Origin: Escherichia phage rV5_ev147
DNA: 64,000 nucleotides
Sequence record: LR597647
Direction: 5' to 3' (one strand)
The position numbers were made by a program, and so were the translations under genes. Shown here one piece after another: positions 55,041 to 63,983 of the stretch. The notes below the pieces were generated by a model. The model did no database searches. It was given only the letters and a program-made list of their open reading frames with translations, and was not told the origin of the DNA. Position 1 is the stretch's first letter. The number at the start of each line of letters is the position of its first letter.

Positions 55041-55499
55041 TCAACACTTTTTGTACTCTACTACAACCACATCAATATCTGTGGTTGCAAGATTAATTAC
55101 ATCTTCTACATGTTCCCACTTTAGACCGCCAATACCGCATCCGATTTTAGGAATGTAGAACGGCAATGACACACCTTTGAATACCTCGTTGACTCGCTCA
55201 AAACCTTTCATGATTGAGAAGTATTCAGCATTGGGCCCTGGGTAGAACTGGGTATACAGGTTGATTCCATATACGACCCTGTTCTTGGCAAAATGCTCCC
55301 AACAAGAAAACATACCCAGCTTGTCTAGATTCCCATAAGCAGTCTCTTTGTCGGCTGCCAGTGCTTGAGGGAACTCACGGGCAATATCTTTCGCTATGCC
55401 TGCACCCATTGTGTGAAAGCAGTTACAACCGTGGATCATGTGGCCTGACCCTTTCTTGAAAATGGAGATTAGATCTCCCTTTACAGTATCAATAATCAC
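55041..55499 (-). CDS. Macro-domain protein (ADP-ribose binding/processing)
   Basis: GDLISIF...HGCNCFHTMGAGIAKDIAREFP and C-terminal IPKIGCGIGGL resemble macro-domain motifs; start set to GTG 55499 after GAGGAG, ATG alternatives lack SD. Confidence 0.55.
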   Translation of the reverse strand: MIIDTVKGDLISIFKKGSGHMIHGCNCFHTMGAGIAKDIAREFPQALAADKETAYGNLDKLGMFSCWEHFAKNRVVYGINLYTQFYPGPNAEYFSIMKGFERVNEVFKGVSLPFYIPKIGCGIGGLKWEHVEDVINLATTDIDVVVVEYKKC

Positions 55500-56693: not shown

Positions 56694-56755
56694 TTTTCAG
56701 ATCTCCTTATACAAAAATGCCCCACCCTTTCGGGCAGGGCTATGTTAACTAGATG

Positions 56756-57982
56756 TTAGAATGGGATGTCATCATCAAAGGCGTACTGTGCTGGATTCTG
56801 ATCCATCGGGTCATCTTCCTCGTCATTTACAGGAGGAGCGTCTACAGTGTTTTGCTGTGGAGCTGCTTCCTGTTTGGCAGCTTGAGGTTCTTGATGGTCA
56901 GTGGACTCAGCACCGTTCTTGATCCAATCGTACAACGGCTCAGCCAGATTAGTCAAGACATCTTTTGCTTCTGCAGTAATTGCCGCTGCAAAATCATCAA
57001 CTTTCGTTTTCTTGTCAATACGGCGACAAGCGTTCAACACCGCATTACCGACACTGGCACCTACTTCATCTTCAGTTCGGTTGGTGGCTTGAGCATACTC
57101 TTTCTTAAGCTCAATGGTGACTACGTGCAGTGTTTTAGCCACGCTTAGTGGGTCATCCACTTTAAACCCGCGATCCAGGATGATCTGCAAAGCATTGATG
57201 CTATGCCCCGTCTCTACACCAATAGGGTCGTAAGAGGATTTACGCTTGCCACCAGAGCCTTGAGTGCCGTTCTCTGCCTTAGGTGGATAGGCTTTGAAAC
57301 CACTGATAATGTTTCCGGTGTCTTTGTCAACAATGGCTGCAACACGACCACCTACTACCAGGTCTTTAAGCTGCTCATCAGTGACAACCATAGCACCTTC
57401 GCCAATCTTGTGGTCATTAACAGTAACCACGTTGCCAACAATCTGAGTCACATCACCATAGATGCGTAAAACGTCCTGATTGGCATTCTGCTGAGGTTTC
57501 TGCTTCTGGCCTTGTGATTGTGCACCTTGTTGCTGTTTTTGCTGTTGAGTCGCTGCTGGGGCCTCTCCTGCACCCAGCTTAACCATTTTAGCCAGTGATC
57601 CTTTATAATAGGTCTTACCGTTATGCTCGTTTGCCTTCAAAGGGATATTTACGATCCATCCCGGCGTTACGGTTTCCCACTTGTCATCAATTTTAACAGA
57701 GACAGAGTCTTGATGACCAGGTTTAAGCAGCTTATCACCCATACTGATCCAAACTTCTTCACCACCTTGAAGCAGGTTATCAGAGGAATCCAGTTCAGAA
57801 ATCAGTAAAGAGATGGTGTGGCTGGATTCAATTTTCTTACCTTGCCACACAGTGGTTTTAATACCTGTTGTAGGATCAGCACCTTTGATAGGTTTGATGC
57901 TGACACGTTTAATCATGCCGTGAGCCAGTAAAACAGTTTCACGCGGATTCATCGGGTTAGCAAATTGTTGAATAACGCTCAT
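56756..57982 (-). CDS. Putative single-stranded-DNA-binding protein with host-SSB-like C-terminal tail
   Basis: 408 aa; Gln-rich low-complexity linker; terminal residues FDDDIPF match the E. coli SSB tail; AAGGAGA SD; N-terminal OB fold not verified. Confidence 0.5.
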   Translation of the reverse strand: MSVIQQFANPMNPRETVLLAHGMIKRVSIKPIKGADPTTGIKTTVWQGKKIESSHTISLLISELDSSDNLLQGGEEVWISMGDKLLKPGHQDSVSVKIDDKWETVTPGWIVNIPLKANEHNGKTYYKGSLAKMVKLGAGEAPAATQQQKQQQGAQSQGQKQKPQQNANQDVLRIYGDVTQIVGNVVTVNDHKIGEGAMVVTDEQLKDLVVGGRVAAIVDKDTGNIISGFKAYPPKAENGTQGSGGKRKSSYDPIGVETGHSINALQIILDRGFKVDDPLSVAKTLHVVTIELKKEYAQATNRTEDEVGASVGNAVLNACRRIDKKTKVDDFAAAITAEAKDVLTNLAEPLYDWIKNGAESTDHQEPQAAKQEAAPQQNTVDAPPVNDEEDDPMDQNPAQYAFDDDIPF

Positions 57983-58347
57983 TATTTGTCTCCTTGTTCT
58001 TCGTTAGTGTTTGCCGTGTGTGCAAACCCTGCTTGAATTAATTTGTCCTGAACTTGAGCCAGCAGGCCCATTGCAAAACTTGTGGTCCCAGAGAGGGCCA
58101 TCAGCATATCTCGTTGTTGAGCTACCCAACCTAAGGCATAGTCCAAACGACGATATTTTTCTTCTTCACGCAAAGCTTGGAATAATTGTTCAGCCTCTGG
58201 CTGTTGTGTGAGCTCCTGAAGTCTTCCCATGAAAGAAGAAAGCACTAGCAGAAGAGACACTTGATCTTTACTTAACCCTAAGAAAAATTCTTGAGGTTGT
58301 TCTTGCTCGTTCATCGCAACCGACGCTTGATCGTTCATTTGTTCCAT
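57982..58347 (-). CDS. Hypothetical protein
   Basis: 121-aa ORF; stop overlaps the SSB start (TAATG). Confidence 0.45.
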   Translation of the reverse strand: MEQMNDQASVAMNEQEQPQEFFLGLSKDQVSLLLVLSSFMGRLQELTQQPEAEQLFQALREEEKYRRLDYALGWVAQQRDMLMALSGTTSFAMGLLAQVQDKLIQAGFAHTANTNEEQGDK

Positions 58348-58430
58348 TATGGAATCTCCGATTTTATTTGAACAACATAGAAGGAGACACTATTTTAGCA
58401 TCCCCTTCTGTAAATTACAATAGGTATTTG

Positions 58431-61205: not shown

Positions 61206-63983
61206 TTAGTGACAATCACCCCAATTACGACCACACAAGTATTCACCTGTGATCTGGAACGGGACTCCCATCATTTTAGAAGCTTGCCAGAAGCAATGCA
61301 CCACCATTTCACCCACAGGGCTCCAGATAAGTTCAAGCTTCCCGTCATCGTTCAGGATAGGATCGTACACCGTGTTTCCGTCTCTGTCAACCACTTCGTT
61401 TCCGTTCTCATCCTTGCGTGCCTTTTTGTACTTATGACCGTCAAACACATGAAGTTTGGCTTCCTGCTCTGCCTTAAATGCTTCCAATTCTTCAATTGTG
61501 TCGAAGGTGTACACAGTCTTATACTTAGGCGTGTCAGGGACTTGAAGTTGGTACTCATCATGGTAATAAATAATACGACGAACACCTTCATCGTACCACC
61601 CACGCTTCACCATTTGGTGGTGCATGAGTATCCCAACTAAGTCACACAACGATGCACCGCCATTTTGTTGGTATGCATTGAGTAAAGAGTGTTTAGATCG
61701 AGTCCAGATAGCATGACCATCAAAAGAGTAGATAAACTTCTTACCCGTTGCTTCCCAGAATTTCTCCAGATCTTCTTTACGCCCCTTAAGACCCGGGTTG
61801 GCATCCCAGAGTGCATCGATTACCCTTTGTCCCAACTCTGGAGAGATATCCAGCATATCTGCAACTTTATCTTTTTGTGCCCCGTACATAACCCCATACG
61901 TGATAGGTTTACCGTCGTTACGAGATACCTCTCTGCCTGCTACTTTTGTATATGCCTCGGCGTTGTTTTGGTGTGCGTCTCCGTTACTTACAACATCATA
62001 ATACAAGCCGTTGTCGAACTCAAAGGCACCCCAAGCCCCGATAAGCTGCTCTAAGTTGGACCCGTCAATACCGATCTCAAAGTATCCCGGAGGAACACCC
62101 CACAGACTACGCATCTCTTTACCCATAACCACTTTAGGAGATGGTTTAGGCATGTTCGCACAAATACTGTGTTTCTGTCGGGAAGTGTTTGTTAACCCAG
62201 AACTTTTAGCAGGAAGCTTATGGTCAATCTTCAAACGTGGGTGATTAAGAAGACCAGTATCAACCTTATCCTCCTTGATTGGATCAAGTACCGATCTGCG
62301 GTTTCGCAATGATAACCACAAGACGATATCTTTAGCCATCTCTCCGTTCAATTTTTCAAGATTAGGGCATAGGTGTCCAAACGTATCTTTCAGTTGCGGA
62401 GAAGTAATAAGTGCCCTAGCTTTTCTACGTATTTTCCCGAATACTTCCTTTTTAATCCTTTCGGAGTTAGGAAAGCTTCGGAACTTGTGCACGGTTGTCT
62501 GGAACTTAGCATCAGTTTTGTTCCAGAAGTTGATAATCAGGTCACAATACTCTGACTCTAAAAGCTCGTCCATATATGCATATACTCGTGCATCAACATC
62601 TGCATCAGGTAGAGCTTTCTTCTTGCTGTCTTTAGTTACATCCTTAGTTCTCCACATTGTCGGAAGCCAACCAGCACTGATCAGGTATCGCTTAATGTCG
62701 TCCTGGTTGCTGATTTTCATAGGTATCTTGCAGTCCGGCATTCGCTTCTGCTGTAGATCACTTATTGCCTGATCCATTAGCTCTTTAGGTAAAGGTTGTG
62801 GTGTGGAGGTGCCCTTAATATAGCCTCTCAAGAAATCAGCCATCTTATCGGGGTCTTTGCAGCCCATCTCTTCACACCATTTTATCCCCATCTTACTGAC
62901 ATCTCCTGTAGAGGTAAATGCTCGCTTAGGCGGGGCTTTGAACTCTAAAGCGCTCATATCTACAGGATAGCCAAGCTTATCTTTTAACCATTTCCAACCA
63001 TTATTGGAGATTGTCCCATCTTGGTTAAACGGCTTTTCAGGGAACTTGGGCCGCTGAGACATTGACAGCTCTTTTAAAGGTAGTTGCGGTTCAACACGAT
63101 CAGCGATTTCTTTCATCCACGCATCGCAACGGTCACGTAAAGCAATAGCCCCATCTATGTCAAAATACACACCCTGACGGGCCTGCAGCTCCATCAGGAA
63201 GTGCTGCAGCATGCCTCGGCGTAATGCGTTCTTCCAGGTGATCTTCTTGAACCCTTTCGGCTTCTCTTTGGCAGGATCGTACATAAAGTTCTGCATGTCA
63301 GATTTGCCGTAGAATACACCTTTTGATTCCGCTACCAGCTCTTTCCAGAGCAGCTCCTGGATGATAACGTCCTCGAATACACGATCCACATACTTCCACA
63401 ACGGAAGATCGCGCCAGTCATCAATTTGAACTTTCTGGTTACCAAGGGCGTAGCCCCATGCCATAAGGCCGTGAGGACCGACAGGCTGCATTTTCTTAGT
63501 AACCGGGTTGAATACAGAGTCCGGACAACCTTTTGGTAAAGGGCGATCAGGCCATAAGATTCGGCTCATCGCCAACGTATCAAACAGGTTGACCTGGTGG
63601 TCGTTGATAGTCCCCATGCATTTAGGATCACGGAACATATCAAAATGAATACCGGATAATCTTTCCATCAGCATAAAGTCATAACTGTAGCAGTTATGGC
63701 AGTTCAAAGCTGTTGGTGACCAGTCGGAATTGCCTGTAAGCCAACCTTCTAACTCCGAAAAATCTGCTATGCGAACTTCAAAATCTTTATAAAGAGTTTT
63801 CTTTGCCAGAATAAAGTTCTTAGCCTTCTCTATATCCTCCTCGGAGTAGTGTGTGCGGTCATTTAGAGGAAGGAACAGCATAAAACGGTTCTTATTCAGC
63901 TCTTTAAACAGGCCGCAGTGATAATAAAGATCTGGGTCTTCCAGCAAACCGGATGACTCAAAATCGAAAGACCACATGCTCAT
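61206..63983 (-). CDS. Family A DNA polymerase, T7 gp5-like, with 3'-5' exonuclease domain
   Basis: 925 aa; FDFESSG (Exo I), LMAWGYALGNQK, GIDGSNLEQL, TYGVMYGAQ (motif B), YYHDEYQ (motif C), C-terminal GRNWGDCH parallel T7 gp5 as recalled; AAGGAG SD. Confidence 0.8.
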   Translation of the reverse strand: MSMWSFDFESSGLLEDPDLYYHCGLFKELNKNRFMLFLPLNDRTHYSEEDIEKAKNFILAKKTLYKDFEVRIADFSELEGWLTGNSDWSPTALNCHNCYSYDFMLMERLSGIHFDMFRDPKCMGTINDHQVNLFDTLAMSRILWPDRPLPKGCPDSVFNPVTKKMQPVGPHGLMAWGYALGNQKVQIDDWRDLPLWKYVDRVFEDVIIQELLWKELVAESKGVFYGKSDMQNFMYDPAKEKPKGFKKITWKNALRRGMLQHFLMELQARQGVYFDIDGAIALRDRCDAWMKEIADRVEPQLPLKELSMSQRPKFPEKPFNQDGTISNNGWKWLKDKLGYPVDMSALEFKAPPKRAFTSTGDVSKMGIKWCEEMGCKDPDKMADFLRGYIKGTSTPQPLPKELMDQAISDLQQKRMPDCKIPMKISNQDDIKRYLISAGWLPTMWRTKDVTKDSKKKALPDADVDARVYAYMDELLESEYCDLIINFWNKTDAKFQTTVHKFRSFPNSERIKKEVFGKIRRKARALITSPQLKDTFGHLCPNLEKLNGEMAKDIVLWLSLRNRRSVLDPIKEDKVDTGLLNHPRLKIDHKLPAKSSGLTNTSRQKHSICANMPKPSPKVVMGKEMRSLWGVPPGYFEIGIDGSNLEQLIGAWGAFEFDNGLYYDVVSNGDAHQNNAEAYTKVAGREVSRNDGKPITYGVMYGAQKDKVADMLDISPELGQRVIDALWDANPGLKGRKEDLEKFWEATGKKFIYSFDGHAIWTRSKHSLLNAYQQNGGASLCDLVGILMHHQMVKRGWYDEGVRRIIYYHDEYQLQVPDTPKYKTVYTFDTIEELEAFKAEQEAKLHVFDGHKYKKARKDENGNEVVDRDGNTVYDPILNDDGKLELIWSPVGEMVVHCFWQASKMMGVPFQITGEYLCGRNWGDCH

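Follow-up and report, generated by a model that had tools for sequence, protein, structure and literature searches.

A candidate replicative single-stranded DNA-binding protein of rV5-like phages with a predicted OB fold, a family-specific helical domain and a host-type SSB tail

The window analyzed here, a stretch of 64,000 nt from Escherichia phage rV5_ev147 (sequence record LR597647), carries on its minus strand, at positions 56756 to 57982, an open reading frame of 408 codons followed by a TAA stop. An earlier note on this DNA had singled out this ORF, ending in FDDDIPF, without giving its strand, and the ORF list and translation bear it out. The product starts with MSVIQQF and ends with ...NPAQYAFDDDIPF; it is the homolog of rV5 gp209 (ORF 214), belongs to PHROG 4477 and is 100% identical to its counterpart in LR694165.1 (Escherichia phage rV5_ev156, Vequintavirus), whose comparison with the window shows one 1-nt indel over 64 kb. 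The gene, referred to here as the SSB-like gene, is labelled "hypothetical protein" in all 115 closely related records. Over the length of the gene, between 16 and 21 "Campylobacter phage" records (host C. jejuni; MG0656xx series) share 97 to 98% identity with rV5-like phages of E. coli; their host label looks doubtful and suggests contamination or mislabelling.

The SSB-like gene is closely flanked on both sides. Directly 3' of it lies a strong intrinsic-terminator-like hairpin (56710 to 56740, minus strand, also placed at 56740 to 56719) with a 9-bp stem containing 7 GC pairs, a GAAA loop and a T run. Upstream, a 121-aa gene (57982 to 58347, minus strand; PHROG 7310, no assigned function) overlaps with its stop the start of the SSB-like gene (ATGA), and a promoter-like site at 58420 to 58392 precedes both. 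The 121-aa protein is rich in Gln and Glu, probably helical, and translationally coupled to the SSB-like protein through this overlap. Its gene is a co-transcribed partner of the SSB-like gene in rV5-like phages only. We rejected it as a universal partner, given that phi92, Mt1B1_P17 and KP2025 have at this place a gene that bears no similarity to it and encodes an unrelated beta-rich protein of ca. 130 aa. Some 1.3 kb downstream of the SSB-like gene, and transcribed in the same direction, is a Macro-domain (ADP-ribose-binding) gene (55041 to 55499, minus strand), the product of which is a T4-like Macro-domain protein in the LR694165.1 annotation.

The tail of the SSB-like protein is that of the host SSB: in an alignment to PDB 1eqq, its last seven residues, FDDDIPF, are identical to the end of E. 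coli SSB (...PPMDFDDDIPF), as the earlier note had observed. At the sequence level, the resemblance is confined to this end of the protein. The full-length product has no match in Pfam, with no PF00436 at E<=1, and scores 11.4 bits against TIGR00621 (cut-off, 53.95), covering residues 331 to 408 only; D1, the N-terminal domain described below, has no match to TIGR00621 when searched alone. Along similar lines, all SSB matches in NCBIfam are sub-threshold and restricted to residues 331 to 408, and PDB sequence and profile searches match E. coli SSB solely through the last ca. 27 to 29 residues. Whether the query was the whole protein, one of its domains or a profile of 24 sequences, searches of Pfam, NCBIfam and PDB gave tail matches only. 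The one full-length match is to phrog_4477, of unknown function (E=7e-174; residues 1 to 408 against profile positions 1 to 393), which the relatives phi92 gp156, Mt1B1_P17 gp116 and KP2025 also match. A few relatives (Phapecoctavirus, KP2025 and BME3) are annotated as "SSB"; the SSB-PHROG matches there cover only the last ca. 40 residues, and we rejected the Phapecoctavirus labels as independent evidence, since they derive only from such tail matches.

Remote homology was examined with hhalign, comparing D1, D2 and D3 profiles with the single sequences of E. coli SSB, T7 gp2.5, T4 gp32 and PriB, as well as with 120-sequence gp2.5 and E. coli SSB profiles built from two database searches. All of these comparisons had probabilities below 6% (0.2% against bacterial SSB and 0.1% for D1 against the 120-sequence gp2.5 profile), values that say little on remote homology because the positive controls (gp2.5 versus SSB and SSB versus PriB) failed too, so that the power of the method was low in this setting. 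As for the T4 gp32 family, phmmer gave E>4, hhalign a probability of 0.5%, and D1 has no Cys3His cluster. By sequence, then, the protein is outside PF00436, PF21265 and the gp32 family, and the earlier statement that its N-terminal part is unlike a canonical SSB holds at this level in Pfam, PDB, NCBIfam and hhalign; by inference, it would nevertheless work like the proteins of those families.

AlphaFold2, run on the SSB-like protein with a 24-sequence alignment, gave three confident domains with disordered segments in between (all coordinates in this paragraph are on the minus strand). The N-terminal domain, for which structure prediction had been proposed as a check, is D1 (residues 1 to 139; 57566 to 57982): all-beta, with a pLDDT of 80 to 90, and a predicted OB fold. 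It is basic (pI 9.1), contains conserved aromatic or basic positions (H55, W78, K97, W102, H120, K123, Y125 and Y126) and is the putative ssDNA-binding domain. Linker 1 (residues 140 to 169; 57476 to 57565), with 13 Gln in 30 residues, is the long Gln-rich linker that the earlier note had described, and its pLDDT of <50 indicates disorder. D2 (residues 170 to 236; 57275 to 57475) is a small, accessory beta domain with a pLDDT of about 80 to 84 in which R173, Y175, R213, F229, K230 and Y232 are near-invariant where it is present. We rejected D2 as a duplicate of D1 (hhalign probability, 0.2%). After a short disordered linker (residues 237 to 250) comes D3 (residues 251 to 356; 56915 to 57232), a family-specific bundle of four helices with a pLDDT of >90. 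The rest of the protein is a tail predicted to be disordered (residues 360 to 408), made up of linker 2 (residues 357 to 400; 56783 to 56914), which is rich in acidic residues, Pro and Gln and has a pLDDT of <50, and the tip AFDDDIPF (56759 to 56782), an SSB-Ct motif assigned by alignment to E. coli SSB and by family conservation and followed directly by the stop codon. D3 is acidic (pI 5.1), and so is the segment from 357 to 408 (pI 4.05).

D3, the most conserved part of the protein, holds the most conserved residues of the family (D252, G255, G259, H260, N263, T289, G308, G312, A314 and A318), and carries the motifs D..G...GH..N and GAxVGxAVLNA; the small residues in this pattern point to closely packed helices. 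Modelled alone with 118 sequences, D3 reached a pLDDT of 94.5 and a pTM of 0.87, and no informative structural relative was found for it. The list of proteins that goes with the structure predictions gives, with a value for each, mitochondrial SSB Rim1 (8.2), B. subtilis SsbB (8.0), Stn1 (8.0), Bartonella SSB (7.9), Thermus SSB (7.8), RPA32 (7.8), E. coli SSB (1kaw; 7.5), RecO (7.4 to 7.6) and PriB (7.0 to 7.1).

A word-indexed search placed 56 clusters in the family, and an exhaustive profile search yielded 245 representatives at 50% identity, 164 of them with E<=1e-10, so that its size is at least 245 clusters, a lower bound. The core architecture is D1, D3 and the tail, in 260 to 300 aa; D2 is an insertion found in about a quarter of the members and is missing from those of 260 to 300 aa. 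In a set of 133 non-redundant members (50% clusters, >=230 aa), the C-terminus is exactly PF, preceded by acidic residues, in 105; another aromatic end (PW or DF) is seen in 15 and PF plus a short extension in 10, and only 3 lack such a tail. An acidic tail with a terminal aromatic residue is thus a property of ca. 90% of the members, and several match up to 11 or 12 C-terminal residues of E. coli SSB, (E)PPMDFDDDIPF. In the ca. 134 of 136 kb of the genome that were covered, the motif D-[DE]-[DE]-[ILVM]-P-F occurs in the SSB-like ORF only. The tail is kept across the at least 245 clusters, down to ca. 20 to 30% identity and in phages of many hosts. Such conservation indicates long-term purifying selection and essentially refutes a chance match.

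The neighborhood is that of replication genes. Upstream and on the same strand are a PIF1/RecD-type helicase, a fused primase-helicase and a T7-like family-A DNA polymerase (61206 to 63983, minus strand; LR694165.1 annotation and ORF check), with ca. 10 small ORFs between them and the SSB-like gene. At every locus examined, the SSB-like gene lies downstream of primase-helicase and polymerase genes; phi92, Mt1B1_P17 and KP2025 have the same gene order, and three distant members of 271 to 276 aa sit in the same arrangement. Two of these three distant loci have a DnaB-type helicase and a Pfam-confirmed family-A polymerase, followed by a few small ORFs and the SSB-like gene, and the third has a Toprim primase-helicase and a 699-aa putative polymerase with only a faint RNase_H_2 match. 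One distant locus has a 5'-3' exonuclease downstream of the SSB-like gene. At a distant metagenomic locus, the SSB-like gene is directly preceded by an ORF (L009:7837-8001) with a match to Pfam Phage_T7_Gp5_9. T7 gp5.9 is a RecBCD inhibitor, and this ORF strengthens the T7-like character of the module.

No other SSB was found. There is no annotated SSB in LR694165.1 (positions 1 to 100000 and 108757 to 133983) or in the middle 50 kb of JeffSchatz, a BASEL phage. When E. coli SSB, T7 gp2.5 and T4 gp32 were compared by phmmer with all ORFs in ca. 134 of 136 kb, the best E value was 2.5 (E>2 for gp2.5 against all ORFs of the genome). In the rV5 genome paper, one ligase, one polymerase and two helicases are listed, and no SSB is spoken of anywhere (PMC3606486); in the literature searched we found no earlier description of an SSB in rV5 or Vequintavirus, or of DDDIPF in phages.

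A second protein of the same phage has a similar end. The fused primase-helicase (L001:3863-5941; LR694165.1 128043-130121), the gene of which ends at ca. 64042, 42 nt past the window edge, terminates in ...HVPGFEDDETPF (..GFEDDETPF), and it and the SSB-like protein are the only ones in the genome that end in D-D-[DE]-x-P-F. A helicase with an SSB-like tail is present in rV5 and in Mydovirus AV124 and absent from phi92 and Mt1B1_P17; we therefore rejected a tail shared by SSB and helicase as a general feature, as it is lineage-specific. Kong and Richardson reportedly found in 1998 that the E. coli SSB tail can stand in for the gp2.5 tail in T7. In T7, the gp4 helicase docks on basic patches of the polymerase by means of its negatively charged C-tails (PMC8472574), and the gp2.5 tail binds, via its last Phe, both the polymerase and the helicase-primase (bioRxiv 10.64898/2026.02.22.705581), while the SSB tail of HK620 recruits the phage recombinase Sak4 (PMC5928155). 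Given the helicase tail and these precedents from T7 and HK620, the T7-like polymerase, a candidate docking partner, and the primase-helicase of the phage would by analogy be at least as likely clients of the tail as the host SSB partners. The tail may use both phage and host partners, the latter through the hijack that the earlier note had proposed.

The tip is not free in all rV5-like phages. The reference rV5 homolog, gp209, has 423 aa, with 15 residues beyond IPF, and the largest protein cluster (P0001; 533 member sequences) likewise continues as ...DDIPF-APVGLQYGKSRIHAL. DNA alignment with a locus of this kind (L011) shows that, relative to the window, its Pro-Phe-stop codons are cleanly interrupted by ca. 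640 nt (L011:3725-4375). This added DNA accounts for the 15 further residues and for an ORF of 207 aa that overlaps them, a free-standing endonuclease gene with matches to phrog_1035, "endonuclease VII" (E=6e-40), and to HNH families; the ORF corresponds to rV5 gp208 (NC_011041.1 121386-122009), numbered gp213 in the genome paper (PMC3606486). The cassette is present in 43 to 52 phage records, the reference rV5 among them, versus 115 records with the SSB-like gene, and the tip is followed by 15 residues in ca. 40% of Vequintavirus genomes. As the cassette is missing here, the window represents the empty-site allele (site at 56756 to 56764, minus strand). The codons beside the insertion differ between alleles (GAT GAT GAC ATC CCA versus TGT GAT GAC ATA CCT), as would be expected from these sequences for a homing endonuclease targeting DDDIPF-coding DNA. 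In the SSB-Ct complexes with ExoI, RecQ, chi and PriA, a basic residue binds the carboxylate of the terminal Phe. For this reason the 15-residue extension should block canonical binding, and since phages with the extended allele are viable and common, an essential host-hijack role of the free tip is argued against; the phages are probably viable without a free terminal Phe.

The extension is more than a read-through into the endonuclease gene. We partly withdrew that explanation, given that L018, L019, phi92, AV124 and epsilon34 have the same peptide but no endonuclease gene with it. Very similar peptides, with no endonuclease gene present, follow the PF motif in phi92 gp156, in the AV124 primase-helicase (..DDDTPFAPIGLQYAKHAIYVI), in the canonical SSBs that Salmonella phage epsilon34 and Vibrio phage K242 encode, and in the clusters P0044 and P0048, which have a convergent gene as their next neighbor. 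The consensus, of ca. 15 aa, is A-P-[IV]-G-L-Q-Y-x4-[IV]-[HY]-x-hydrophobic (from P0001, P0044, P0048 and P0019 and from L003:3596-4528, L004:3791-4738, L013:1075-1581, L014:1015-1578 and L015:518-2581). With or without an adjacent endonuclease gene, the extension is common to three unrelated families: the SSB-like proteins, PF00436-type SSBs (epsilon34 and K242) and the Mydovirus AV124 primase-helicase. We found no description of this peptide in the literature searched. A joint reading of these features, speculative and rather doubtful, is that D3 and the host-type tip form a new kind of docking hub, and that the optional addition after IPF, carried also by canonical SSBs of P22-like and Vibrio phages and by a primase-helicase, is a portable "cap" or second docking motif. 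It would hide the free terminal Phe, thereby switching the tail between host and phage partners or concealing the tip from host sensors of foreign SSB, and would spread with a homing endonuclease targeting DDDIPF-coding DNA.

Set against known systems, the protein resembles bacterial SSB (PF00436, TIGR00621) in its predicted N-terminal OB fold, in a disordered linker rich in Gln, Pro and Gly, and in FDDDIPF, identical over seven residues and placed at the very C-terminus in the window allele, while 15 further residues follow in the reference rV5 allele. Presumably, ssDNA coating and partner recruitment work as they do there. In contrast to bacterial SSB, its OB domain has no sequence similarity, D2 and D3 are added between OB fold and tail, and there are two disordered linkers instead of one. 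With T7 gp2.5 (PF21265/DUF2815), it shares an acidic C-terminal tail ending in Phe and a replisome of primase-helicase and family-A polymerase encoded together with it, in which the helicase of the same phage is tailed too; Foldseek gives a weak similarity to DUF2815 proteins. However, no sequence homology is detectable, the tail is of the host type (DDDIPF) versus ..DEDGDF in gp2.5, D2 and D3 are present, the gene position is not gp2.5-like, and the phages are myoviruses of 135 to 150 kb. RPA32 and Stn1 are eukaryotic OB-fold subunits with a C-terminal protein-recruitment domain; this domain is a winged helix and not a four-helix bundle, the proteins are part of heterotrimers and lack an SSB-Ct tip, and the resemblance is probably only an analogy. 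We know of no Sak4 beside the rV5 SSB-like gene. HK620 SSB depends on its six C-terminal residues, NDYPPF (similar to DDDIPF), for bringing a phage-encoded partner onto SSB-coated ssDNA, although that protein can be recognized as distantly homologous to bacterial SSB, lacks extra domains and has a recombinase as partner (PMC5928155).

The domain layout, the predicted folds, the conservation of the tail, the conserved neighborhood and the lack of another SSB in the searches lead us to propose, with a probability of about 0.6, that the SSB-like gene encodes the replicative SSB of rV5-like phages, of previously undescribed architecture. The product would most likely join its hidden OB fold and a new type of helical domain to a tail that copies the host SSB. 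We infer that the basic OB fold of D1 would bind ssDNA, possibly with help from D2 in the long forms, that the four-helix bundle of D3 would serve as an oligomerization or replisome-docking module, and that the disordered acidic C-terminus with DDDIPF would recruit its putative partners to SSB-coated DNA. When there is no DNA, the C-terminus would probably bend back onto the surface that binds DNA, as happens in E. coli SSB and in T7 gp2.5. The divergent phage SSB that the earlier note had suggested is thus favored by convergent, indirect evidence, whereas the decoy that it offered instead fares less well. A pure decoy is unlikely, and so is a host-takeover hub. Under this explanation, the protein would mainly present its perfect copy of the host SSB tip and so capture PriA, RecQ, RecG, ExoI, Pol III chi, RecO and UDG, sequestering them from host DNA or redirecting them to phage DNA, with ssDNA binding secondary or absent. 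The identity of the tip with E. coli SSB over 7 residues, and over 11 or 12 in relatives that infect enterobacteria, fits it, as does a long flexible linker suited to presenting the tip. Yet a conserved basic OB domain with conserved aromatics is needless for a pure decoy, the gene keeps its fixed place beside the polymerase even in very distant phages, the tip is buried under 15 extra residues in so many Vequintavirus genomes, including the reference rV5, and the similar tail of the primase-helicase suggests an intra-replisome code.

The protein could also act as an accessory factor of the replisome or of recombination and not as the bulk SSB, for example, as a helicase loader, a primosome adaptor or an annealing or mediator protein (RecO, T4 gp59 or gp2.5 annealing). 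This is possible, if improbable: the OB fold would sense ssDNA or forks, D3 would bind a phage enzyme and the tail would plug into the SSB interaction network, but known mediators bind the SSB tip and do not carry it, the protein is without a Zn finger and without any detectable RecO, gp59 or annealase signature, and this would leave the genome itself without any SSB. That the tail is incidental, owed to chance or to recent recombination from a host or prophage ssb, in a protein with a function unrelated to ssDNA, we find hardly credible. Recombination could give exact identity with the host, and the mobile endonuclease cassette targets exactly the tip-coding site; the purifying selection evident across the family speaks against it.

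Collections for phage therapy and biocontrol, like the BASEL reference set, commonly contain rV5-like phages (Vequintavirinae, along with the related Stephanstirmvirinae), and the replisome of these phages has so far been described without an SSB. If the SSB-like protein is their replicative SSB, a family of at least 245 clusters and no known function would gain a role, and the T7-like replisome would be completed in large myoviruses. The protein would also show a new way of building an SSB, in which an OB fold that sequence profiles fail to see is joined to a new helical domain. Several defense systems that sense SSBs act on Vequintaviruses, and the protein would be a candidate trigger or target for bacterial defenses sensing phage SSBs (Retron-Eco8, DARNA and others). 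Finally, the natural polymorphism between a free tip and a tip followed by 15 residues provides a ready-made test of what the SSB tip is worth to the phage.
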